Shown here: in pieces, positions 32,310-57,949 of the stretch | Numbering within the stretch: the stretch's first letter is position 1 | Layout of the letters: every line of letters starts with the position of its first letter | Source of the DNA: a virus | Strand: one strand, 5' to 3' | IMG/VR virus record: IMGVR_UViG_3300027977_000007 | DNA: 64,000 bases | The notes under the pieces: model-generated | What the model was told of the DNA's origin: nothing | What the model saw: only the letters and a program-made list of their open reading frames with translations | Databases searched by the model: none | Translations under genes and position numbers: made by a program

Positions 32310-33902
32310 TTACATTATCAATTCGTACTTAAATAAACCACAATCCCATATTCTATCATAACCTAATTCGCTAGTCAATTCTTTCTCCGTTTTATTAAAA
32401 TCCATATTAGGGTATTTTTTCCTTATAGCGTTTTTACCAAAACCAAATTTGTGAAATCGTTTATGTTTATCTACTTTTGAATTATAATAGCAATAATTGG
32501 GTTTAACCAAACCAACTAGTTTAAACCCAATATTTGTGTAAAGGTTGTTATTTACATCAAGCGTCCAACGCCTATCAGCAAAACTAATTATATTTTTAGG
32601 TGAATAATCGTTTATAAATTGTTTTATGAATTTAGATGCCAACCCACTAATAATATAATTTTGCTTTGTTGCATATCTAGTTAATTCATATTCACCATCG
32701 TTAGTTTTTGTCATGTTACGCTTATTTGAAAAAGTCATTACACCTACTAATTCATTATTATAATAAGCCCCATAATTTATTGTTGAGTTATCATTACCTT
32801 GGATATGGTTTTCTTTTAAAAATAACCCTTTTTCTTTCCCGTTAATTATCTTGACCTTAACGTTTCTACCACCTATTTTAATACCATCATTTATTTTTAA
32901 TATGTGCTTTAATTTATTTTTAACTAATTCCTTATTAAGAACCCATTCATCCTCAAAAATATGTATTAATTTAATACCTATTTTCTCACAAGCCATTGTT
33001 TTATCTAAATGATAAGTAGAGTTTTTACCCATTTTTTCGGTGTGATAATATAATCCATTATATTCTATACCTAATTTAATTTTAGGTATTATTAAATCTA
33101 TCTCTTTACCGTTCAATAGTTTTCTATTTTTGCTCTTCTCAACACTAAAACCTAATTCTTCAATAAACTTTTTTATTTCAATTTCACCCTTTGATGTCCA
33201 GCTTGGTTTCATATTAATATTAGTTATTTTTATATTGTTTCTAAAAATAACAGACGATGATTCAGATATTAATTTATTATTAGGAAATAATAATTTATAG
33301 TCATTACTACTAATATTGTGTTTAGTTTTTAAATGTGTATTTGATATAAGTTTCATTTTTTTTCCACATAAATTACAAACAACATAATTTTTTTCGTCAA
33401 GGAATAACTCTTCTCTTTCTTTATTTTTTATTGTGGTTTTAAATATGTGTTCTATATTTATTTCTTTATCCTTTTCAACAATATCAAAATATACCTCAAA
33501 CCATTTTTTATTATTAACTAATTCATATTTTTTTCGTTGATAAGTGTTAGACGGAATTTTAATATCACCATAGGTATTTAAAATATGTCTAGTTAATGTC
33601 CCAGATAAATTATTTGGGTCATCAAACTCTATTTTTGTTTTTTTACAAATGGCAACTAATTTTTTATTGGAATTATTTATTGAATACAGTTTAGTGTTAG
33701 ATTTTTCAATATCATGACTATTACCAATTTTAACTTGCCCACCCTTTTTATTAATCGCTATAGAATGCTCAGTTAAAATTAATCTAATCCTATCATTACC
33801 AACTTTAAATAATTCACCAAGTTTATGTATACTAACTTTATCTTCTTCATATAATAAAATAATTTTTTTTATATCTTCTTCTGTTAGATTTGTTTTTGCC
33901 AT
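32310..33902 (-). CDS. Hef-like free-standing homing endonuclease (HTH + Zn finger + Vsr/DUF559-like nuclease + GNAT-like C-domain)
   Basis: CNLC...HLKTKH; EIDLIIP...GIEYNGLYYH...LIHIFEDEW; ELVGVMTF...YELTRY...SFADRR...RIWDCG. Start moved to MAKTN (33902) because a promoter overlaps the track start. Confidence 0.7.
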   Translation of the reverse strand: MAKTNLTEEDIKKIILLYEEDKVSIHKLGELFKVGNDRIRLILTEHSIAINKKGGQVKIGNSHDIEKSNTKLYSINNSNKKLVAICKKTKIEFDDPNNLSGTLTRHILNTYGDIKIPSNTYQRKKYELVNNKKWFEVYFDIVEKDKEINIEHIFKTTIKNKEREELFLDEKNYVVCNLCGKKMKLISNTHLKTKHNISSNDYKLLFPNNKLISESSSVIFRNNIKITNINMKPSWTSKGEIEIKKFIEELGFSVEKSKNRKLLNGKEIDLIIPKIKLGIEYNGLYYHTEKMGKNSTYHLDKTMACEKIGIKLIHIFEDEWVLNKELVKNKLKHILKINDGIKIGGRNVKVKIINGKEKGLFLKENHIQGNDNSTINYGAYYNNELVGVMTFSNKRNMTKTNDGEYELTRYATKQNYIISGLASKFIKQFINDYSPKNIISFADRRWTLDVNNNLYTNIGFKLVGLVKPNYCYYNSKVDKHKRFHKFGFGKNAIRKKYPNMDFNKTEKELTSELGYDRIWDCGLFKYELIM

Positions 33903-33917
33903 ATTTTTTATTTTATA

Positions 33918-33948
33918 CAAAGATACCAAATTAAAACCATAACGTCAA
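33918..33948 (-). promoter_or_regulatory. Bacteroidota-type promoter TTG-N20-TATCTTTG
   Basis: + strand CAAAGATA at 33918-25 and CAA at 33946-48. Confidence 0.75.
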
Positions 33949-34051: not shown

Positions 34052-35944
34052 TTATCTCAATTCAGCAACGTTAAACGTTGGTACACCATCTACACGGATA
34101 GCTCCGTAAAAGCGGTTATTTACCATTTTTTTAGCGTAACGTGTCATGATACCCTTAACTGGGGCAAAGTTAAACGGATTGTACATAGTTGGTGTAAGTT
34201 GCAAAGGCACGTATGGTGCGTAGATGTAACCTGTATCCAACAATGATTTACCTTTGTGACCGATGATGATTGAGTATGCTGGTGCATAAGGGTCACGGTA
34301 CACTTGGTAACGTCCGCTTAATGTACCGATTCTCTCAATACCCATGTTGTATTGGTCTTGCTCAGGGTTAGCATCACTTACGTGGAAGTATTCCAAATCA
34401 TCAAATATCGCTGAAATTTCAGAAGATACTACGATAATGTTAGCACCACCACGAAGAGTTGACTTGTGGATTTGAGCACTAGTTTGGTTTACTCTTGTGA
34501 TAAGAGTTTGATTCCAGTCTTTTTGTGTGTAAGGACTTGCAGCAGAAGAAGCTCTTCTCCAACCGTTATAATCCCAACGTAATTGCCATGCAGAACCTGT
34601 ACGCAAATCTCTAAGGATTTCACGGTCAATTTCAGCAGCAACTTGTTCTGACAACATAGCTGTCAATTCAGCTTCAGCATCAATGTTGTGGAATGCACTA
34701 ACGTCTTGAGCCAATTCTGGTGACCATGTTGCACGTAATTTACGTTCTTCAACACTTACTACTACTTCGTCAAGTCTAAATGAAACTTCACCAAGTTCTG
34801 TTTCCAATTCAAGAGAAGCGTATTCAGCCCATCCAAAAACAAGACCAGCAGTAGTTGTAATCGCTGATACAGTTGTTGCAGAAGCACCAACATAACCATC
34901 ATAAGTTTCAGTACCAGCTACGGCAACACCGCTTGCAGTGGTACCAACTGGGTGACGTAAGTCAACCTCAACATACATTACATTACTAGAATTCGCTGCA
35001 CCAGTTTTTGTACCTTGAACGATAGCCTTACCGTATTGTTGTGTAACTACACGGAATGGCACCTTACTACCACCAACAACAATTTTATTACCATCACTAT
35101 CTAAGATAGCATTAGTAGTAACACATTGTAATGAAGCCAAGAATGACTCAGTATCCATGTTGTTACCGTCTGGGCCAGTCAATACTCCACGGCCATTAGT
35201 ACCAGCACCACCACTGAAACCAGACATTGTTAAAAGAACAGTTCTAACTGAACCATCAGTTGCTCTTGGGAAAGAAGCTGATGGGGTCAATACTGTAAAA
35301 GTACCGTCAGAATTTAAAATGTTAGCGTTTGCATTAGTAATCGCATAGGTTTTCATTGTAAGAGTACCTTTAGAGTTATCGAACAAACCATCATCATAGA
35401 ATGCATCATACAAGTTTTTAGCTTGCATTTGAGTCAACTTAACACCGTTAGTAGAAACGATAGCTGGAACAGCAGCAGAAGTTGCAGAACCATCATGCTC
35501 ACCGTTAAGACCAGTGTGTGCTGAGTATTGTGTTCCATAAGTGGCATCAGTTGATGATACACCATTGTAGTTGCTACCAGCAACAGCTGGGTTAGCACCG
35601 TTAACACGGCTAGATGTTTGTGGAACGAAGTAGAACAATTTACCAATTGGCATGTTCATAGCTTGAACCGATACGATATCATTCGCTAATAATTTAGAGA
35701 AAACTCTACGTACAATTGGGAATACAACTGTTTCGAAAGAACCAGATGATGTCGCTGTTGTGCTTTCGCTCAACAATTGAGAAGCTTGGTTCTCATACAA
35801 TTGTGCAACGTTTTCTTTAACGTGGCCTTTTAGACCTTCTAGGAAGCCTAAGCTTTCCCATTTTGCTTGGGTTTCTTGACGGATAGCCTTCATGTGGTTC
35901 AATCCGATGTTACCAACTTGTCCAGATGTTAATAAATGTGACAT
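34052..35944 (-). CDS. gp23: major capsid protein (T4 gp23-like)
   Basis: PIVRRV...IVSVQAM..P.G, RKLRATWSPELAQD...H.IDAEAEL, YAPYVPL, P.KGIMTRY. Confidence 0.95.
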   Translation of the reverse strand: MSHLLTSGQVGNIGLNHMKAIRQETQAKWESLGFLEGLKGHVKENVAQLYENQASQLLSESTTATSSGSFETVVFPIVRRVFSKLLANDIVSVQAMNMPIGKLFYFVPQTSSRVNGANPAVAGSNYNGVSSTDATYGTQYSAHTGLNGEHDGSATSAAVPAIVSTNGVKLTQMQAKNLYDAFYDDGLFDNSKGTLTMKTYAITNANANILNSDGTFTVLTPSASFPRATDGSVRTVLLTMSGFSGGAGTNGRGVLTGPDGNNMDTESFLASLQCVTTNAILDSDGNKIVVGGSKVPFRVVTQQYGKAIVQGTKTGAANSSNVMYVEVDLRHPVGTTASGVAVAGTETYDGYVGASATTVSAITTTAGLVFGWAEYASLELETELGEVSFRLDEVVVSVEERKLRATWSPELAQDVSAFHNIDAEAELTAMLSEQVAAEIDREILRDLRTGSAWQLRWDYNGWRRASSAASPYTQKDWNQTLITRVNQTSAQIHKSTLRGGANIIVVSSEISAIFDDLEYFHVSDANPEQDQYNMGIERIGTLSGRYQVYRDPYAPAYSIIIGHKGKSLLDTGYIYAPYVPLQLTPTMYNPFNFAPVKGIMTRYAKKMVNNRFYGAIRVDGVPTFNVAELR

Positions 35945-37265: not shown

Positions 37266-37319
37266 ATCTAGTTTTCAAAAAAGACATTTATATAAAAAAA
37301 AAAATGATAAAAATTTGCA

Positions 37320-38039
37320 TTATAATAAAAATTTATTTAAATCATCGATTAAATTTTCTTTTATAACATTTTTAGTGGTGGTAACGCTCTCAACGTAAGG
37401 CTTAGCTTCTTCAACATTTTTAAATATCCATGCATCTGGTGTTGATGGTGCGGTAACTATATCCCAACAAATTATCTCGAAATCTTCTTGGACTATTTGT
37501 TCACCGTTCTTACCTTCTTTTAGCGAACCTACACCTCTAGATGAAACACCTATCTTAATTCTATTTCTTAATAGGTTAGCAACTTCATCACCCTTGGTTG
37601 AAACGATACCATAATTAATAAAGCCTGGAGTCATTAGGATTTCCATCTTACCCATTAGTGTATGACCTTCCCACCATGTTTCAATAATATTGTGAGATAT
37701 TCTATCGATAGAAATAACTGAACTTTCTGGGTGGTCACATTCACCTACAGCACCTCTAGATTTAATTAATTCTTGATATAGTTCATTTTGTTTTCTTAGA
37801 ATGTGTTCTGGGTAAACCCTACCATTTCGGTTTAAGATACCGTATTTTTGTAGTATAACATATACAACTAGAGGTTCACCGATAATTACCTTACCAGTTT
37901 CTAGTTTTTTCATTTCGTTAATGAATGGTAAATTTCTAGGCTCATCAGGACTAATGTAACCAGCGTCTTGTTCGATGAGGAATCCAAAACCACTTTGACC
38001 ACGCTTGATAACCTTAATATCGTTATAATTTATTTCCAT
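37320..38039 (-). CDS. gp21: prohead protease (T4 gp21-like)
   Basis: NRNGRVYP, GECDHP, SHNI, GVSSRGVGSL, WDIVTAPSTPDA; ATATTTAT at 38064-38057. Confidence 0.93.
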   Translation of the reverse strand: MEINYNDIKVIKRGQSGFGFLIEQDAGYISPDEPRNLPFINEMKKLETGKVIIGEPLVVYVILQKYGILNRNGRVYPEHILRKQNELYQELIKSRGAVGECDHPESSVISIDRISHNIIETWWEGHTLMGKMEILMTPGFINYGIVSTKGDEVANLLRNRIKIGVSSRGVGSLKEGKNGEQIVQEDFEIICWDIVTAPSTPDAWIFKNVEEAKPYVESVTTTKNVIKENLIDDLNKFLL

Positions 38040-38550: not shown

Positions 38551-38602
38551 TTTTAAATATTTTATACAAGTATAACAAAAAAAAATGAAAGCGTCAAGTT
38601 AT

Positions 38603-43352: not shown

Positions 43353-43376
43353 TAAAGGCCCATATGGGCCTTTATT
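43353..43376. terminator. hairpin terminator
   Basis: TAAAGGCCC-ATAT-GGGCCTTTA. Confidence 0.7.
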
Positions 43377-44686
43377 TACATTAATTCATCTAAGTCAAAT
43401 CCTTCTGGTTCTTGACTATCATCGTCACCAAATAATTCCTTAAAACCAAACCCATCCGAATCTTGTTCACCAAAAAGTTCTTTAAATTCAAAGCCTTCAG
43501 AATCGTTTTTTTCTTTATGTATTTTATTAGAATCAATCTCATCCATAGCTTCATTGAAGTCATCTTCTTGTAAACTAGCTTTAACTTCATCGACTACCGC
43601 TTTAATTATTTTTTTACCTTCTTTGGTATTAGCCATAATTTCTCGCATCTTTACGTTAAACTCTCTAACTGGCAATGCAGCCAATTCAGAATATATGTGA
43701 TGCTTTAAATGGAAATCATCTGGTTCGATTAAGTTAGTAAATCTACTCCATAATGCTGGACCTATACGCATATCCCAAGGTTCAGCAGCCAAAAAATCTG
43801 CCTTATTAATAACATATTCACCGATTCGTTTATTCTTAGGTAAGCCATGTGCAGATAATAACTCCATAACACCCTTAACCAATTCGTGAATTAATACTGG
43901 GAATACTAAGGCTTGTGCATATATTACGGCTTTTGGATTAGACTCAGTTGGGAATTGTACTCTAACTACGCCACCATTTTTTGAATCCTCAAGATTTGGT
44001 AAGATATAATAAGTGTAATCAGCGCTAGCCATCATCTTAGAATACTTATTTGGCAATCTAGGGTCCATATCAGTTAATTCCTCATCAACCAAATGAAACA
44101 TATGATTACATTTTTTTGCTGAACCCTGTGTCATAGCATTTAGGAATCTACGCTTATAAACTTCTTCATTAGCATTAACTAATTCGTCATGGTTCTTAAA
44201 GCTAGACTCAGTTGACATTGGCTTGGCATTTTTAATCGTTCCAACCATATTAATTTCGTTAGTTAATTCACAATTAATTTCAACAATGTCATCAGCCATA
44301 TCAAATTCTTCACGAATCATCCTTTCGGCTAGCTTTTCAAGCTTTTTTTTGTGCTTTGCCTCTAAGCCTTGGGTTTCATAAACCAAGGGCATTAATTCAC
44401 TTAAAACAACTTTATTATCAATAGAATCAACATCATAAGCTCTCTTATAACGCTTTGCAACTTCACTAAAACGTTCACCCATAATCTTTTCTTCAAAGGT
44501 TGATTCATCATCATCTGGAAATATTGGATGCTTACCTAATGAGTGTTGTCGATTCATTAAATCTGATTCTAATTTAGGTGCCATTCGTTCAGATAATCCT
44601 TCTGGATAAACAACGCTTTCATTTAAGCCTTTGCTTTTATTTGCTCTGTTTAAAGCAGATTGGAGAATTTTTTTATAATCACTCAT
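43376..44686 (-). CDS. hypothetical head-associated protein
   Basis: 436 aa; PVLIHELVKG; C-terminal repeats EGFEFKELFG/DGFGFKELFG/EGFDLDELM. Confidence 0.65.
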   Translation of the reverse strand: MSDYKKILQSALNRANKSKGLNESVVYPEGLSERMAPKLESDLMNRQHSLGKHPIFPDDDESTFEEKIMGERFSEVAKRYKRAYDVDSIDNKVVLSELMPLVYETQGLEAKHKKKLEKLAERMIREEFDMADDIVEINCELTNEINMVGTIKNAKPMSTESSFKNHDELVNANEEVYKRRFLNAMTQGSAKKCNHMFHLVDEELTDMDPRLPNKYSKMMASADYTYYILPNLEDSKNGGVVRVQFPTESNPKAVIYAQALVFPVLIHELVKGVMELLSAHGLPKNKRIGEYVINKADFLAAEPWDMRIGPALWSRFTNLIEPDDFHLKHHIYSELAALPVREFNVKMREIMANTKEGKKIIKAVVDEVKASLQEDDFNEAMDEIDSNKIHKEKNDSEGFEFKELFGEQDSDGFGFKELFGDDDSQEPEGFDLDELM

Positions 44687-44687
44687 A

Positions 44688-45725
44688 TTATTTGCTTATT
44701 TTTTTTATTAGGTTTTCTTCTAATTGTGCTTTACTAATAATACGTCTTTCGGTAGTTACTTGTGCTTGTGGTTCAGTATCACCAGTTGCGATATCTTTAT
44801 AACTACTAATAATGGTACTTAGTTTCCCAAGCGGTACACCAATTTCTTTAGCCATAGCGGTTAGGAATTGAGCTTGTTCTATTGGTTTATCTAACTTAGC
44901 TAAGTAAATACTAAATTTATTTTTTATAAGATTAGCTAACTTGGTAACATCAGCCTGTAACTTAGGTACATCAGTACCATCGGTACTAACAGCTTCAACC
45001 TCATTCATTGCAGATTTAAAATAATTACCAAATCTAAAACGTTTCAAGCCCTTAACATCCATATAATCTTCATCTGGCCCTAAACCTTGTCCAGATTTAA
45101 TCATATCTCTATTTGTTTTAAATTTTGCAACAACCTCACCAGTATTTATGTTAACAAAAAAATGTTTAAATGATGGGTCGATATCACTTAAATTGATATA
45201 AGCCATAAGTGAACCCTTATCTTCATCTTGTTTAATTTCCTTAACATGTGGAACCACTTGTATATCTTGCCCAACCATACCCATAGCTTCTTTCATTGGC
45301 TTGGCGATGTTTTGGTCAAAGTATTCCATCGTATGAATAATATTCTCATTATTTTCATTAAGGTCATCAAAACAATATACACCCATAACAACAGCATTAG
45401 CTGAGTTAATCCCCCTAACCAATTGATATTGCTTATCACCAATATTAAACGGCTTTGAAACATCACCAGTATTAGAATCCTTAACGTTTGATAAATACCT
45501 TAGTGTTTCAGCGTCCTTTGGTTCTATGATAGCATCTTGTTCCATCATCGATGACATAGACGCACCCATATCTTTAGCATTGCTTTTACCACCCAATTCA
45601 AACTCAATATCCTTGTTAGTTTTTTGAATTTGAGACATGCTCTTTGTAATAGCTGGATTTTTAAGGTCGTCTTTGCTTACATGTATCTTAAATTTGTCAT
45701 CTTCAGAAATATTGTGTTTTTTCAT
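44688..45725 (-). CDS. hypothetical protein
   Basis: 345-aa ORF in late operon. Confidence 0.65.
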   Translation of the reverse strand: MKKHNISEDDKFKIHVSKDDLKNPAITKSMSQIQKTNKDIEFELGGKSNAKDMGASMSSMMEQDAIIEPKDAETLRYLSNVKDSNTGDVSKPFNIGDKQYQLVRGINSANAVVMGVYCFDDLNENNENIIHTMEYFDQNIAKPMKEAMGMVGQDIQVVPHVKEIKQDEDKGSLMAYINLSDIDPSFKHFFVNINTGEVVAKFKTNRDMIKSGQGLGPDEDYMDVKGLKRFRFGNYFKSAMNEVEAVSTDGTDVPKLQADVTKLANLIKNKFSIYLAKLDKPIEQAQFLTAMAKEIGVPLGKLSTIISSYKDIATGDTEPQAQVTTERRIISKAQLEENLIKKISK

Positions 45726-45728
45726 AAT

Positions 45729-46121
45729 CTATTTTGTGTATTTAAGTATTAGGTCTTTTTCATAAAGTTTATCTTGTGTCTCAGAAATGGTTTCACCAAA
45801 CCTGAAACTAAGTCGTTTATCTGGATATGTTTCATACGCATTCACATTCTCCCAAGCCAATGCGATAACATCATCCACAGCGTCCCAAACAGCAAATGTA
45901 TCACTGTTTTGAATTACGTCCAAGTTTAACTCAGACTCTAACCTACCAACCTTTTTAATGTAAAATTCGTCTGGTGGTTGTGGTCTACCAGATGCTGGAT
46001 AGGTATCCCAATCGACACCATCAACATCATCAGTTGTGTCAGAGAATATAAACTCATAAAAATAGTTACCCTCATAATTTTTACCGACATAATTTATATA
46101 AATTAAAAAAAATTCATCCAT
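45729..46121 (-). CDS. acidic hypothetical protein
   Basis: 130-aa ORF in late operon. Confidence 0.65.
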   Translation of the reverse strand: MDEFFLIYINYVGKNYEGNYFYEFIFSDTTDDVDGVDWDTYPASGRPQPPDEFYIKKVGRLESELNLDVIQNSDTFAVWDAVDDVIALAWENVNAYETYPDKRLSFRFGETISETQDKLYEKDLILKYTK

Positions 46122-46153: not shown

Positions 46154-48946
46154 TCATTTAGTACCATTAGCTTTAGGTCTTGGTTGTACATTTGGCATTG
46201 GTAAAAATGGTTTATTTTTTCTACTAGGTGATGGTTTTGTGTTAGGCTCCACCATTGGTTGAACTTTAGGGTCAATAGTTGGCGCAGTCATTGGTTCAGC
46301 ATCTTGACCAAATGTTTCTTGTAGCTTCATACGTATATAGTTTTCATTAAAGGTAGTGTTTTTTGTTGAATTTTCCAAATCTTCACCAACAATTTTAGAT
46401 ACAGGTGTTGAAGACCACATCTTACATGACCAATACTTAGGTGTTGTTCTATCTTTAGCGTCACTGCATTTATGTCTGGCCCTAAATGATTTTCGTCTTT
46501 TTGGGTCGTCTCTTTTTATTTCCATATTAGGGTCACCAAAATTAACTTTAACTACATTACCCTTCTCATTTTTAACATAAACCTTAAATTTCTTAACGTC
46601 ACCTTTCATTGGTTTTCCTAGTGGTTTATCATCATATTTACCTTCATAGAGGTTAGCATCCTCAACTGTACCGTACTCATCTTCATACCCAGCTTCAGAA
46701 TCACCATCATAAGCATCTAATGTGTTTGTTAAGAAATGATAAACTTCTTCCATATCGTCATTAGATGTTGCTATGTGGTCTAAAGCCCACCCATGACCAT
46801 CATTTAATAATGCATCTACACTATTATAATCCATCTCTAATAATTCTTTAGATGCGTGTTGAATAGTTTTAAGACTTGACCAAAACATATAATTGTTTGA
46901 TTCGTGTTCACCTTCATTAACTACTATACCTTCGATAGCAGCTTCAATAAAATGATATACTTCTTCAACATCATCTTTTGATGTAATAACATGCTCGACA
47001 GCCCATTGATGACCATCAGCAATCAATGCATCAACTTCTTGTTCGTTCATACCCAATATTTCAGTTGCATTATCATAAATTCCTTTTAGATTTTGCCAGA
47101 ACATATAGTTGTTAGATTCTTCTTCTTGATTTTGTTGATAAATACTTAATTTGTTTTCATTGGCGGCTTTTTTACCCCATGAATCACCCTTACCTTTTGT
47201 CTTACAAGCACTAGGTGTTGGTCTGCAAGATGGATATTTACTTCTTTCTTCACCATCCTTTCTACCACATGGCTTACATTTTCCGTCTCTACATGTGTTG
47301 CAATCTACCCAACCACTACTACCTTCACCACCTCTTCTAGAAAACCAACCATGTAGACCGCTTTCTTTTTCTTTTGAAAAATCAGTTTTTTTAGCGGCCT
47401 CATCAATTTGTTCGTCCGTCATGTTTTTATAATCACCTAACTTATCTAGGTCTTCTTCTTTAATTCCTTTCCAAATCTTACCTTTTCTACATCTAACAAC
47501 AGCACCCGAATTTCCAGTTATTGTGATAATACCACGACCTTCAGTTTCTTGCATCATAACCCAAGTACCATTTTCTGTTTCTGGACACCAAACATCTGAA
47601 ATATTTTCTTTAACTAATTTAAAATTAGATGTGTTTTTAAGGGGTTTATTGCTACTATAATGACATGAATAAATGTCTTTATCTTTAGCTTTTTTCCAAG
47701 TTACTAGACCAGAGTTTAAAAAGGCTGATAACAAAAATGCGTCTCTATGCTCAATATCTTTTTGTTTAAAACCAAAAGATTGTTTACCATGTGGACCAGT
47801 ATATAACCAATTTAATTTATCAATTTTATTTATATTTTCAGTTAGTCTTTCTACTTTTTGTTGATTACCATCATAAACGATAGCACTAAATAACCATGCT
47901 TGTCTTTGTTCACTAGTTATATCTAAAATATATTTTACCCAATTAGTTCCATATTTAAATATTTCATCTAACTTAACATTATTACCACCATTATATGGTG
48001 CTGAAACAACCAAACTTTTATTATTCTTATTTGCTAATAAATCACTAGTCTCAATTAAAGCTTTATCATTTATTCTATCATATTTTTGCAATCTATTTCC
48101 TTTAATATCTGGTAATTTAACAACCCACTTATGATTATCAGTTGCTTCAAATATAAAACCATTATTGCCGCTTCTAACTACATTAGTTTTAACATCTTTA
48201 TATCTATGCAAATTTAATATTGGTTTAAATTCCAACTCATCTCTTTCAATATTATATGTCATTATTTCGTCACCTAGATTAAGTTGATTAACATCCTTCC
48301 AACCATCTCTAGTTAAAGCTTTAGATGTGTTTTCTGGAACACAAGCATAGGCCGATGGCCATACATCATACTTACGTTTTGCAATTCTAGTACATCTATC
48401 AGATTCATCTAATATATCATTAGAACCTTCTTGGAACATATTGTTTTTTTTAGGTTTATCTAAAAATAAATTTTCATAAACTGTAAGTTCGTCTAATTCT
48501 TCTAATTCAGCGTCAACCTTAACATCTAAATCTTCTGGATTCGTTGTATCTGTAGATGGCTCTGTATCTGTGCTACCAGCCTTTTTAACTTTATTTATGA
48601 TATCTTTTTGGTCTTCAGCATCCATCTCTGAAGTGTGTGATGCCGCTATTACAGAATTAATAGCAAATTTTTCTAATGCGAAATCTGGTTGACCTTGAGC
48701 TTCAGTATATTTTCTAAGCGACTGTCCAAGTTTCCCAGTTAGTTGCTCGATATATTTCTTAGGGTCTGTCTCTTCATCGGCCTCAACACCAGCATCAAAT
48801 GGCTTATCATCAAATGGCTTATCATTTGCTGGTGCTGGTGCTGCTAATGGCGCTGCTGCTTGCGATGGTGCTGGTGCTGGTGCTGGTGCTGGTGCTGGCT
48901 CAGATGAACCAGCAACCTTTAACTTATATTTTGTTTCTTCAGTTAA
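46154..48946 (-). CDS. modular multi-domain protein containing an intein; frame open back to the A11 slip site, probably made as a -1 frameshift fusion with 48943..49638
   Basis: Frame has no stop upstream of the track's Met (48625) back to 48946, reading LTEETKYKLKVAGSSEPAPAPAP...HTSEMDAED, with no ATG in between. Confidence 0.75.
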   Translation of the reverse strand, partial: LTEETKYKLKVAGSSEPAPAPAPAPAPSQAAAPLAAPAPANDKPFDDKPFDAGVEADEETDPKKYIEQLTGKLGQSLRKYTEAQGQPDFALEKFAINSVIAASHTSEMDAEDQKDIINKVKKAGSTDTEPSTDTTNPEDLDVKVDAELEELDELTVYENLFLDKPKKNNMFQEGSNDILDESDRCTRIAKRKYDVWPSAYACVPENTSKALTRDGWKDVNQLNLGDEIMTYNIERDELEFKPILNLHRYKDVKTNVVRSGNNGFIFEATDNHKWVVKLPDIKGNRLQKYDRINDKALIETSDLLANKNNKSLVVSAPYNGGNNVKLDEIFKYGTNWVKYILDITSEQRQAWLFSAIVYDGNQQKVERLTENINKIDKLNWLYTGPHGKQSFGFKQKDIEHRDAFLLSAFLNSGLVTWKKAKDKDIYSCHYSSNKPLKNTSNFKLVKENISDVWCPETENGTWVMMQETEGRGIITITGNSGAVVRCRKGKIWKGIKEEDLDKLGDYKNMTDEQIDEAAKKTDFSKEKESGLHGWFSRRGGEGSSGWVDCNTCRDGKCKPCGRKDGEERSKYPSCRPTPSACKTKGKGDSWGKKAANENKLSIYQQNQEEESNNYMFWQNLKGIYDNATEILGMNEQEVDALIADGHQWAVEHVITSKDDVEEVYHFIEAAIEGIVVNEGEHESNNYMFWSSLKTIQHASKELLEMDYNSVDALLNDGHGWALDHIATSNDDMEEVYHFLTNTLDAYDGDSEAGYEDEYGTVEDANLYEGKYDDKPLGKPMKGDVKKFKVYVKNEKGNVVKVNFGDPNMEIKRDDPKRRKSFRARHKCSDAKDRTTPKYWSCKMWSSTPVSKIVGEDLENSTKNTTFNENYIRMKLQETFGQDAEPMTAPTIDPKVQPMVEPNTKPSPSRKNKPFLPMPNVQPRPKANGTK
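47510..48343 (-). mobile_element. intein, 278 aa, with possibly degenerate LAGLIDADG endonuclease
   Basis: Begins CVPENTSKALTRDGWK, block B TDNHKW, block F VWCPETENGTWV, ends ITGN followed by Ser; removal restores WPSAYA|SGAVVRCRK; AWLFSAIVYDGN resembles a LAGLIDADG block. Confidence 0.9.
48793..48898. repeat. coding repeats: 15-bp duplication (DKPFD) and (TGGTGC)x5 Pro-Ala linker
   Basis: CATCAAATGGCTTAT twice at 48793-48822; TGGTGC five times at 48866-48895. Confidence 0.85.
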
Positions 48947-49638
48947 TTTTTTTTTTTATTATTAAGAAGATTGTCAATATTTTTTAAAGTGTTTGAAAAA
49001 GTAATTTTAGACTCATTAACATCATCTTTTTGACCATCTCTTAATTTTTCAAAATCATCAGAATCTAATTTACCGTTTTTGTTAACATCAAGCTTTTTTT
49101 GACCACCCTTAAGTTCTTCTCTAGCTATAATTTCATCTACAGCCTTTTCAGCTTCGGTCAATTCATCATCCTCGTCCTCTTCATCCTCATCTTCTGGCTT
49201 AACACCATACTCAACTTCTCTAGATGCTTTTTCATAATCTTCGTCATCTTCCTCAGATATTAGATTATCATTTTCAAATATATTGATGTCACTACTAACA
49301 TTATAAGCTTCAGCAAGGCTTTTAAACTTTAAATTTAATTGCTTAATGGCTTTAGCGTAAGAAGGGTAAGCTTCTGATTTTTTATTCATAAGACCACCAA
49401 TGTATTGAAAGTCTTCAGCGAGGATACTTGAAGTCTTAGAAGTAACCTTAATATACCACTCGTGATTCTCACGTATAATAGCATATGACTTACCATCTGG
49501 ACCCATCTTAGTTAACTCTACAACAATATTGCTTGTGTTTTCTTTAATAACAGATTTAACACCCATTAATTGTTTCATACGCTCATTGATAGCATCACCC
49601 TTAAGACCTACTGGACTAATATTTATGTTTTTCTTCAT
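48943..49638 (-). CDS. acidic hypothetical protein with EF-hand-like motif (upstream part of the frameshift fusion)
   Basis: 231 aa; DVNKNGKLDSDDF; ends NNKKKN* at the A11 run. Confidence 0.75.
   Translation of the reverse strand: MKKNINISPVGLKGDAINERMKQLMGVKSVIKENTSNIVVELTKMGPDGKSYAIIRENHEWYIKVTSKTSSILAEDFQYIGGLMNKKSEAYPSYAKAIKQLNLKFKSLAEAYNVSSDINIFENDNLISEEDDEDYEKASREVEYGVKPEDEDEEDEDDELTEAEKAVDEIIAREELKGGQKKLDVNKNGKLDSDDFEKLRDGQKDDVNESKITFSNTLKNIDNLLNNKKKN
48947..48957 (-). other. A11 slippery site (-1 frameshift or transcriptional slippage)
   Basis: Minus strand AAT AAA AAA AAA AAT TAA; the -1 frame continues TTA ACT GAA GAA. Confidence 0.7.
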
Positions 49639-50388: not shown

Positions 50389-51522
50389 TTAGTTTGATAA
50401 TGGGAATTTTATTATTGGGTGTGATTTATAATTATCAAAGGTAAAATCGGCAATTGACATATTTTCATTAAGCACGTTGATATCGGAATGTAGTGGTCCA
50501 ATTCCGCATTCAAAAGTCTCGGTTGGCCAGAATTCCGTATTAATGTTTAGGGTTGGTAATTCATATGGTTCTCTAGTAATTTGTTCTTTACAACCTTCTA
50601 TTTGATTTAGATAAATATGACAATCACCTAAGTTACCAATTAATTCATCTGGTACCATATTAGCAATCTTGCCAAATAAAGATAATAAAATACCATAAGA
50701 TGCGATATTATACGGAATTCCCAGAGGAACATCACATGAACGTTGATTCCACATTAAAGAGATAGCCCTAGTTGGTATATTAAACCATTTTAAATCCTCT
50801 TCGTATGTGGTATTCAACTCCCATTGAGCGTCCCAATCTTCTAGACTTCTACCATTATGTCTTTTAGCCCATTCATCAAAGCGTTCTTGCATGGTTAGCT
50901 CTCTAGTATATAATTGAAAACCGTAATGGCAAGGAGGTAATATGGCCTTATCAACCTCAGATGGGTTCCAAGCGGTAACCATCATTCTTCTAGAATCTGG
51001 GTTGGTTAATAAATCATTTATTAAGTTTTGTATTTGGTCAATATCAGAGTTCCAGTTACGCCAACAGTGTCCATATATCTTACCTAATTCGCCCCATTTA
51101 TTTGCAAATTCATTATCCGTTTTGATTTTGTTAATAAATTCATCAATAGTAAATTGGTCACCTACACTATATGACCCAATACCGTTTTTCGAACTTAATA
51201 ATTCAGCTTTTCTATCATTTGGGTTGTACGAAAAATCAACATGTTTTTGATAATACTTATAAGCATCTCCGTTCCAGATATTACAATCATTATCTACCAA
51301 ATATTTTATGTTGGTTTGACCCTTAAGGAACCATAATAGCTCAGTAATAATACCTTTGGTATACATTTTTTTTGTGGTAAGTAGTGGAAACCCATCTGAC
51401 ATTTTATGTCGTATTTGTCTGCCAAAAAGAGATATAGTACCACCGTTTCTTGTTTCTTTTTTGGTACCATTTTCTAGAATGTCTTTTAACAATTCTTGGT
51501 ATTGCTTATCTAATTTATTCAT
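50389..51522 (-). CDS. thyA: thymidylate synthase
   Basis: FPLLTTKK, ELLWFLKG, PDSRR, LPPCH, NQRSCDVPLGIPYN, GDCHIY. Confidence 0.97.
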   Translation of the reverse strand: MNKLDKQYQELLKDILENGTKKETRNGGTISLFGRQIRHKMSDGFPLLTTKKMYTKGIITELLWFLKGQTNIKYLVDNDCNIWNGDAYKYYQKHVDFSYNPNDRKAELLSSKNGIGSYSVGDQFTIDEFINKIKTDNEFANKWGELGKIYGHCWRNWNSDIDQIQNLINDLLTNPDSRRMMVTAWNPSEVDKAILPPCHYGFQLYTRELTMQERFDEWAKRHNGRSLEDWDAQWELNTTYEEDLKWFNIPTRAISLMWNQRSCDVPLGIPYNIASYGILLSLFGKIANMVPDELIGNLGDCHIYLNQIEGCKEQITREPYELPTLNINTEFWPTETFECGIGPLHSDINVLNENMSIADFTFDNYKSHPIIKFPLSN

Positions 51523-56370: not shown

Positions 56371-56796
56371 ATGCCATATACACATAGAAAAGTCGGTGAT
56401 AAAGAATGCGTCTTTAAGAAAGACGGTGGTGCTAAAGTAGGTTGCACCAAAGGCGATATCAACAAATACTTAGCAGCATTATATGCTAACGTAGATGAAG
56501 CTAATACAATTAAAGGTGGTAAAGCCGATAAATTAACCATCAAGCAAATAGCCGATAAATTTGGTAAGTCCGTAGATGATATCAAAGCACAAATAAAAAA
56601 AGGTATCACTGTCGAAATGGAACATACTTCAGATAAGGAAAAAGCAACTGAAATAGTTATGGACCACCTGTCTGAATTTCCAGATTATTATGATAGACTT
56701 AAGAAAATGGAAGATAAAGCCAAAGAAACATTTAAAACAAATGAAGGTTTATCTTATTCAATAAAACGTTTATTAAGAGAAGGTTTAAATTATTAA
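56371..56796 (+). CDS. DUF5661-like protein with C-terminal IKRLLREGL tag
   Basis: KGITVEMEHT...IVMDHLSEFPDYYDRL. Confidence 0.7.
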   Translation: MPYTHRKVGDKECVFKKDGGAKVGCTKGDINKYLAALYANVDEANTIKGGKADKLTIKQIADKFGKSVDDIKAQIKKGITVEMEHTSDKEKATEIVMDHLSEFPDYYDRLKKMEDKAKETFKTNEGLSYSIKRLLREGLNY

Positions 56797-57260
56797 ACCA
56801 ATATATTCGAAGCTACCACATAATCTTTTATTATCAGCATAGTGGTTATTATATAGGTTTTCATGCTTCACATCCTTTCGTAGCTTTTTGTGCTTACTTG
56901 TCGGTTTCCATAGTGGAGACTTTTCCCTGTACATAATCATTTTTGGATGTGCCGTCCTAGAGAAAAATCTATGACCCTGCTCTAAGTGTATCTGGGCAAT
57001 AGCATCCGAAAATCTTACACCAATACCCATACCTTGGAAATCAGGTAATATAACGGTTCTATGCCCTCGCCAACCATTCTTAAAGGCACCATTTGGTTGA
57101 GCTAAGGTGGCCGAAAAACCTACTACTTGGTCGTCCCAAATCGCAATATAACATCTAGCGGCTTTATTGATGTTGGTATCTAAATAATGATGGTCCTTAA
57201 ACATTCTCCAACTATCATAGCTTGTGCGATATACTTGGATATTGATTTCTGGTCGGACAA
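56785..57260 (-). CDS. GNAT-like acetyltransferase domain, reached by -1 frameshift from the ABC ATPase
   Basis: HHYL, RTVILPDFQGMGIG acetyl-CoA motif; frame open upstream of the track Met as FVRPEINIQVYRTSYDSWRMFKDHHY. Confidence 0.75.
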
Positions 57261-57869
57261 AAAAAAACCATTAAGTAATTCACCTGTATCGGTATTTATT
57301 ACCCAATCTGGTTCTAACCAATCTAATATGTCACTATGACATGTTGATATAACAACGCTATCTAGATTATTCGTTTCTATATACCTAGATAAAGCCACGC
57401 TAGCAGCCTTAGCTACCGTTCTATCCACAACACTAGTGTATTCATCAATTACAGCACCAGACCTAAGCTTCCTAGCTAAGTCAGCCCTGAACTTTTCACC
57501 ATTGGATAATACGTTATAAGACTTATACCACGATGGTATCGTATTAAAGCCCACAGAGCTTAATTTATTGATACCATCGGCTGGACTATCAAAATGTGAA
57601 ATAATAGCCTTAGCTTCGTCCCAAATAGGTTCCTCTTCGATTCCAAAGTGTTTAAGTAGTGTCGACTTTCCACTTCCGCTACTACCTACGATAACACCAA
57701 GCTTAAATTTCTTGGGTATCTTACTTGGTAACTTCCATGGGTAAAACTTAGAAGTGCCATCAAAAATGCAATCAAAGGCTGTTTCACTAGCAGTTACGTA
57801 TTCATCTTTAATGACAGATGATGTTAATGGAATGGTTTCTCGTTCTAATTTTTCTATTAATTTATCCAT
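57180..57869 (-). CDS. ABC-type ATPase (COG2401-like N-terminal half)
   Basis: GSSGSGKST, LSNGEKFRA, IDEYTS.VDR, STCH; likely start MDKLIE at 57869. Confidence 0.85.
   Translation of the reverse strand: MDKLIEKLERETIPLTSSVIKDEYVTASETAFDCIFDGTSKFYPWKLPSKIPKKFKLGVIVGSSGSGKSTLLKHFGIEEEPIWDEAKAIISHFDSPADGINKLSSVGFNTIPSWYKSYNVLSNGEKFRADLARKLRSGAVIDEYTSVVDRTVAKAASVALSRYIETNNLDSVVISTCHSDILDWLEPDWVINTDTGELLNGFFLSDQKSISKYIAQAMIVGECLRTIII
57259..57267 (-). other. U9 slippery site (-1 frameshift)
   Basis: Minus strand GGT TTT TTT TTG TCC; -1 frame reads TTT GTC CGA CCA GAA. Confidence 0.7.
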
Positions 57870-57910
57870 GTATAAATAATAGATTAAAACTATCCTAAGT
57901 AAAGTATAAT

Positions 57911-57949
57911 AAATAAAATGGCCAGATAACAATGAAGGTTATCTAGCCA
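57911..57949 (-). terminator. rho-independent terminator
   Basis: Minus strand UGGCUAGAUAAC-N7-GUUAUCUGGCCA-UUUUAUUU. Confidence 0.7.

Follow-up and report, generated by a model that had tools for sequence, protein, structure and literature searches.

Some phage genes, such as those for the lambda tail chaperone G/GT and the T7 capsid protein 10A/10B, make both a short protein and a C-terminally extended form of it by -1 ribosomal frameshifting at 7-nt heptamers such as G_GGA_AAG. Elsewhere, paired products arise from polymerase slippage on homopolymers. In Thermus thermophilus dnaX, transcriptional slippage on an A9 run yields tau and gamma (Larsen et al., 2000, as reviewed by Atkins et al., 2016; PMC5009743), transcriptional frameshifting at A/T runs is described in Citrobacter rodentium tssM and Shigella spa13/mxiE (PMC4256274; PMC5009743), insertion sequence (IS) elements are also known for programmed slippage at A/T runs (PMC5009743; PMC4256274), and paramyxovirus P/V and Ebola GP carry editing sites at which the polymerase stutters (PMC5009743). 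Here we analyze a candidate site of this kind in a 64,000-nucleotide stretch of IMG/VR virus record IMGVR_UViG_3300027977_000007 (hereafter the window), in which an 11-nucleotide A run (A11) joins a 231-codon open reading frame (ORF1) to a much longer downstream frame (ORF2). Comparison with relatives supports a conserved, apparently programmed recoding site that would give a short and a long product with a common N-terminus, outside the tail-chaperone context.

The slippage mechanism is of a known kind, while the phage gene family is new and very widespread; a literature search of a limited full-text collection found no description of either the family or the site. One close likeness is to Thermus dnaX, where an A run of at least nine nucleotides within a gene likewise yields two products, one short and one long, with the same N-terminus, and no elaborate stimulator is needed. 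However, dnaX encodes a replicase subunit, whereas the gene here encodes a phage protein without assigned function, its slippage is predicted from sequence, and the unslipped product of its family is short in most lineages and long in a few, with the run present in both. As in tssM and spa13/mxiE, two length variants would come from a gene interrupted at a homopolymer, but those are bacterial secretion genes of few species and the phage gene spans hundreds of protein clusters. The P/V and GP sites share with this one that they persist regardless of which isoform the unedited template codes for (here, 85 junctions in the -1 frame and 7 in frame), yet they involve an RNA-dependent viral polymerase, short A/G runs and defined cis signals, in contrast to a DNA phage and, probably, a bacterial-type polymerase acting on A9–A11. 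Finally, lambda G/GT and T7 10A/10B are also phage late-region genes with a short and a C-terminally extended form, though they use heptamers rather than a run of at least nine; moreover, lambda G/GT precedes the tape-measure gene, while the present gene precedes terminase and portal, with an extension four times as long as the short form.

At the junction itself (Table 1), ORF1 ends in AAT AAT AAA AAA AAA AAT TAA (protein end ...LLNNKKKN), with its stop 1 nt 3' of the run. The -1 frame is closed by TAA TAA TAA immediately before the run, opens 2 nt into it and has no stop between 48955 and 46157; the +1 frame ends after a single codon. As the 0-frame stop and the -1 opening both bound the run so closely, the frame change must fall within it. 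The -1 frame begins KKK LTEETKYKLKVAGSSEPAPAPA and later reads DKPFDDKPFD; its first ATG, GTG or TTG is the ATG at 48625, and its start-free part comprises three Lys and 107 further codons (110 in all). Stop codons make up ~7.6% of random codons at the GC content of the contig (31.9%), and arithmetic from the contig composition puts the chance of 107 open codons at ~2e-4. A messenger RNA (mRNA) with one extra A would encode 227 + KKKK + 930 residues, a fusion of ~1161 aa with the predicted junction peptide NNKKKKLTEETK, or ~883 aa without an intein-like insert described below. The initial annotation of the window, made from its letters and open reading frames, had already joined the 231-aa ORF to the downstream ORF in the -1 frame at A11, with 107 start-free codons after the run and a fused protein of ~1160 aa; coordinates, codons and size all agree with our own. 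The run by itself is not rare, with seven A/T runs of at least nine in the 97.6-kb contig against about eight expected, so that its significance rests on its conservation.

That conservation is extensive. Three scans of viral contigs, together with look-ups of individual proteins, gave 177 related loci, which reduce to 92 distinct junction contexts, and every one of the 92 has a run of A9–A11 at the same junction (shortest, nine). ORF2 lies in the -1 frame in 85 contexts (A10 in 74, A9 in 8, A11 in 3); in 7 contexts, which come from other lineages, it is in frame (A10 in 6, A11 in 1), and no context has it in the +1 frame. In the -1 contexts the 0-frame stop follows the run by 1–21 nt and the downstream frame is open for 269–930 codons. 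The junction flanks vary widely across relatives; the run alone is fixed. Thus what marks a slippage site—an A/T run of at least ~9 at the junction, conservation both of the run and of its frame relation, and a downstream frame without a start of its own—is found here. A conserved, programmed short/long pair outside the tail-chaperone context had been proposed in the initial annotation, subject to a check of the homologues, where an independent start and no A-run would have told against it; in the homologues, A-run and offset are instead preserved and an independent start is missing, which bears the proposal out.

Fused homologues point to one protein on both sides of the junction. In an alignment of 19 downstream frames, invariant columns are concentrated in the first 130 residues after the run, where the annotated Met is M111. 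An exhaustive protein search with the post-run block matched 513 clusters (50% identity). In most of these the called protein begins right at the block, the pattern to be expected of gene callers that restart past the shift. In ~17 of the top 150 the block is internal, and there a single ORF runs from the ORF1 N-domain through a linker into the block. Such single-ORF homologues have an identical domain order; seven carry KKK at the junction (P0014, P0039, P0125, P0144, P0146, P0131, and P0120), and three (P0143, P0151, and P0088) have neither KKK nor run and sit on long, deep branches. In-frame DNA was obtained for seven fused homologues from four sources (Logan, NCBI, ENA, and JGI), and the in-frame loci (L093, L094-096, L097, L178-L181) retain A10 at the KKK junction, e.g., TCT AAA AAA AAA AGT CTA AGC, with both alternative frames stopping within 0–8 codons. 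Lys is encoded by AAA in 75.7% of cases in these genes, and outside the junction just 2 of 27 KKK triplets are all-AAA. This rarity, taken with the retention of A10 where ORF2 is already in frame, argues that the homopolymer itself is under selection. Judged from these comparisons, the run appears to serve the production of two isoforms, no matter which of them the DNA encodes, and not to be a mere bridge between frames. In a quick N-domain tree (many forks unresolved), in-frame and run-less forms fall outside the main -1 clade; a few of its rows were labeled -1 without individual verification.

Three of the in-frame relatives carry further runs. In L180 (601-2862), two in-frame runs, A11 and A10, flank an inserted ~160-aa module between the N-part and the KYKLK block, a layout that suggests module insertion at slip sites. 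In L179 (601-2412) and L181 (601-2052), the ORF ends ...VFKH(I/L)(H/S)LKK(K/N).. and another A9/A10 run stands a few nt before the stop codon; this terminal run may be a further slip site into the next frame.

The practical consequence is that gene callers split this gene in essentially every assembly, and a family of more than 500 clusters (50% identity) is therefore entered in annotations as two hypothetical proteins with no link between them, one of which has the wrong start. Once the slip site is recognized, the true product of the gene can be reconstructed across a large clade of uncultured T4-like and jumbo phages, and the few known programmed poly-A slippage sites gain a widespread natural example from phages. 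Because the run is kept both in and out of frame, the family is well suited to measuring how slip rate translates into isoform ratio.

Table 1. Coordinates of the slip site, the frames that it joins and other features of the 64,000-nucleotide window.
Feature	Coordinates	Strand	Remarks
ORF1, short product, 231 aa	48943-49638	-	Conserved N-terminal domain ~aa 1-125, then acidic low-complexity tail
A11 homopolymer, predicted slip site	48947-48957	-	0-frame AAA AAA AAA AAT TAA; T11 on plus strand
-1-frame reading frame of long product	46154-48955	-	933 codons + stop; without start before 48625
Best-conserved block of whole protein: KKK-L-T-E-ETKYKLK, Pro/Ala linker, DKPFD repeats, three-helix domain	48566-48955	-	Annotated ATG 48625 inside
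L-T-E motif, [LIV]-x-E type, directly past junction	48938-48946	-	Candidate T4-type prohead-protease site
RNA hairpin UGCUGGUUC-AUCU-GAGCCAGCA	48893-48914	-	Directly 3' of KYKLKV codons
Intein-like insert, 278 aa	47510-48343	-	Cys ... Gly-Asn, then Ser (C205...GN482, then S, in 933-aa frame)
Small basic/Cys module KKFKVYV..VNFGDPNMEIKRD..RHKC..DRTTPKYWSC	46415-46627	-	phrog_7595, E 1.9e-11, residues 777-847 of 933-aa frame
Second homopolymer junction, U9	57259-57267 within 56785-57932	-	GNAT part in -1 frame
gp21-like head protease	37320-38039		Match to phrog_207, E 1.8e-40

As to how the long form is made, we think it probable, though well short of certain, that this is one gene with a programmed slip site at which RNA polymerase slippage adding one A is the main route. 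Translation of the unslipped mRNA would stop just past A11 and yield the 231-aa short form, whereas in a fraction of transcripts RNA polymerase would slip on the run, add one A and bring the 930 downstream codons into frame, giving the ~1161-aa fusion (~883 aa once the intein-like insert had been removed). The slip rate at the run would set the short:long ratio, some ribosomal -1 shifting on A_AAA_AAA may contribute, and both forms are presumably made and used. In favor of polymerase slippage, the run is never shorter than nine in the 92 contexts, although a ribosomal heptamer needs just seven. Structure upstream of the run that might act as a Penno-type stimulator is weak (mean -4.3 kcal/mol, mean z -0.8), with stems ending beside the run in 24 of 60 contexts.

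Several observations count against this account. Koscielniak et al. (2018; PMC6260861) report that slippage by E. coli RNA polymerase occurs more easily on T than on A runs. An in-frame A_AAA_AAA heptamer is present in every context, the total absence of the +1 frame fits a -1 ribosomal shift equally with insertion-biased polymerase slippage, and neither half of the protein has an informative function match (Pfam, PHROG, fold, and Atlas searches).

The best-surviving alternative, which we nonetheless rate as unlikely, is that the long form comes mainly from programmed -1 ribosomal frameshifting, or ribosome sliding, on A_AAA_AAA in an mRNA population of uniform length. The slippery heptamer is there, as in-frame AAA AAA AAA preceded by A in all contexts, and the offset is always -1, never +1. 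In E. coli, ribosomes slide little on A9/A10 and robustly only from A11 (Koutmou et al., 2015; PMC4363877), and the run in our window is itself an A11; most relatives, however, have A10, a length of weak sliding by the same measurements. Nor do the flanks look like those of a ribosomal site, as neither a downstream structure at 5–9 nt nor a conserved upstream Shine–Dalgarno (SD)-like element was found. Specifically, the region from +4 to +33 nt after the run holds no stimulatory structure (mean fold -1.5 kcal/mol), an SD-like tetramer precedes the run in only 8 of 60 contexts and is not conserved, and the sole conserved hairpin starts at least 30 nt away and tracks KYKLK, not the run. Also against a ribosomal shift are the minimum of nine A, where seven suffice, and the retention of the run in loci that need no frame change. 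The initial annotation had named -1 ribosomal frameshifting and polymerase slippage together; recoding at the A run stands, and the mechanism leans to polymerase slippage over the ribosomal shift.

Runs of 10–11 A are replication-slippage hot spots, and a DNA-level contingency locus, in which run length would vary within the population and some genomes would encode the fusion and others the short form only, could draw on this general property and on the occurrence of both in-frame and out-of-frame configurations in the family. We consider it very improbable, as all 85 distinct contexts of the large IMG/VR clade are in the same “off” (-1) state, and the in-frame loci belong to other lineages and differ from them in upstream register, not in run length (they also have A10). 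We give even less weight to an assembly or sequencing error that turned a true A12, and hence a plain single ORF, into A11. Although the contig is a metagenome assembly and homopolymers are error-prone, the identical offset recurs in 85 distinct contexts from many samples and at three run lengths, the 0-frame stop lies 1–21 nt past the run throughout, and in-frame A10 does get reported by assemblies of other lineages; in addition, three further A9/T9 runs of the same contig (positions 14764, 53075, and 10340) lie inside intact ORFs, so the assembly has no systematic miscall of such runs. Least credible is a pair of separate genes with the long ORF starting independently at ATG 48625 or a non-canonical codon: gene callers do start most homologues just past the junction, but that ATG lies within the most conserved block (M111 in the alignment) behind 110 conserved codons that contain no ATG, GTG, or TTG, fused homologues exist, and between the parts promoter-like matches are no commoner than in shuffles and there is no terminator-like site. 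Together, the conserved run and offset, the run-less single ORFs and a best-conserved block that reaches upstream of the annotated ATG make both assembly error and independent initiation very unlikely.

The strong hairpin that the initial annotation placed ~30 nt downstream of the run does exist, but it does not look like a frameshift stimulator. The stem-loop (GCUGGUUC-AUCU-GAGCCAGC, 48913-48894) has 8 bp and a 4-nt loop and begins 33 nt past the run, and the 81-nt stretch around it folds at -20.6 kcal/mol (z -4.4 vs. dinucleotide shuffles). A hairpin is present behind the KYKLK codons in 58 loci with varying stem sequences, among them GCUGGUUC/GAACCAGC, GCAGGUUC/GAACCUGC, GGGGCU/AGCCCC, GGCGG/CCGCC, and AAGCUGG../..CCAGCUU. 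RNAalifold found no consensus for the hairpin region as aligned with MAFFT, since the stems fall into different registers, and a synonymous-recoding test was used in its place. Against synonymous recodings the hairpin has a mean z of -2.08, with 27 of 58 loci below -2, in contrast to a mean z of -0.3 to -0.5 and 1–4 of 58 loci below -2 in three control windows further downstream. This stability beyond that of protein-preserving recodings, unlike the control windows, indicates that the hairpin is selected at the RNA level. The KLK codons stand 28–52 nt from the run in most loci and 98–623 nt from it where a module is inserted between them, and even at these larger distances the hairpin stays with KYKLK. 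To judge by its placement among relatives, then, the hairpin is linked to the KYKLK codons and not to the run, and so is no frameshift stimulator of the kind that acts at a fixed spacing.

The window belongs to a viral contig of 97.6 kb from IMG/VR (metagenome assembly; 31.9% GC; CheckV completeness 29%). Thymidylate synthase is the upstream neighbor of the slip-site gene, and downstream on the same strand follow three ORFs without assigned role and then a large terminase and a portal, both of T4 type, a gp21-like head protease and a major head protein. These neighbors (thymidylate synthase on one side; three ORFs, terminase and portal on the other) and the 930-codon extension do not fit a tail chaperone of the G/GT type, whose gene pair directly precedes the tape-measure gene and has a short overlap extension. 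The large terminase is only ~30% identical to its nearest isolates, and tblastn searches with ORF1 and with the conserved post-run block gave no match in 50,697 GenBank phage records; no cultured relative was therefore found among them. By eye, the neighboring ORFs at 45729-46121, 44688-45725 and 43376-44686 share no obvious modules.

With regard to the protein, an AlphaFold2 (AF2) model of the fused homologue P0014 has two folded parts with disordered acidic and Pro/Ala linkers between them: an N-domain of three strands and a helix (residues ~24–100; predicted local distance difference test score, pLDDT, >90) and, after the run, a three-helix domain. In the alignment, the remainder of the long product is a variable string of small modules. 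Pfam and PHROG searches with both halves returned phrog_7595 and sub-threshold noise only, and the phrog_7595 module (the small basic/Cys module of Table 1) also contains a DNA-level match to hypothetical genes of Pelagibacter phages. Compared with ~48,000 PDB chains, the P0014 model had no match above Z 6, the matches being generic helical ones, and an Atlas search found only viral clusters without names.

Position and motifs allow some suggestions about function. An [LIV]xE motif stands 1–3 residues before YKLK in 58 of 58 loci, [LI]xE occurs 442 times against 298 expected, and [LI]-x-E at module borders coincides with a gp21-like protease gene in the genome, the combination seen in T4-type cargo. 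From the motif we infer that the phage protease would cleave at the [LIV]xE just past the junction. The terms “head protein” and “abundant short, rarer long” of the initial annotation are plausible from the gene position and these motifs, and a carrier-plus-cargo reading is possible given the invariant [LIV]xE before YKLK, the [LI]xE excess and the encoded gp21-like protease. The likeness here is to retroviral Gag/Gag-Pol and to the T4 internal proteins (IPI-III and Alt, with their capsid-targeting sequence), drawn by inference: an N-terminal carrier may be made in excess, with a minor fusion bringing cargo into the capsid, and the [LIV]xE motifs resemble T4 gp21 protease sites. Tentatively, and with doubts that outweigh our confidence, we propose Gag/Gag-Pol-like cargo loading in T4-like phages, in which the N-domain would be a capsid-targeted carrier made in excess and slippage would set the cargo-bearing fraction. 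Fusions would then drag the variable module string, in this phage with an intein-bearing module, into the prohead, where the head protease would cut at [LIV]xE just past the slip site and free the cargo; the hairpin after KYKLK could be a further RNA-level control of the long form.

The intein-like insert separates ...DVWPSAYA from SGAVV... within a small Cys/basic module of the long ORF. Six homologues (L003, L004, L011, L016, L017, and L024) lack it cleanly, their exteins being contiguous (WPSAYASGA). Its terminal residues and its precise absence are those of an intein, with Gly as the penultimate residue where His is usual. Similarity to Hint domains is weak (PT-HINT, E 0.032, 14.9 bits vs. 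a cut-off of 27.7; hedgehog Hint structure 6tyy, E 0.67), and the middle region could be a homing endonuclease.

A second homopolymer junction lies elsewhere in the window. An ABC-ATPase part (57180-57932) and a GNAT part (56785-57204) jointly cover one profile, phrog_11143, and meet at a U9 run that seven close relatives retain with the same offset and 155–161 open codons, while four relatives of ~40% identity lack the run and have one continuous ORF of 403 codons. This second conserved site suggests repeated use of homopolymer slippage by these phages.

Other features of the surrounding genes may be recorded briefly. Two more runs on the plus strand, A11 at 37294-37304 and A9 at 38577-38585 (T runs on the coding strand), each fall into a short gap between genes of the head module. 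The thymidylate synthase (50389-51522, minus strand, 377 aa) has ~110 extra internal residues, as its 266-position Pfam profile is stretched over residues 6–375. The major head protein (34052-35944, minus strand, 630 aa) matches PHROG only over residues 313–607, leaving a long N-terminal extension, and the gene after it encodes a 539-aa homing/HNH endonuclease-like protein (32310-33929, minus strand).

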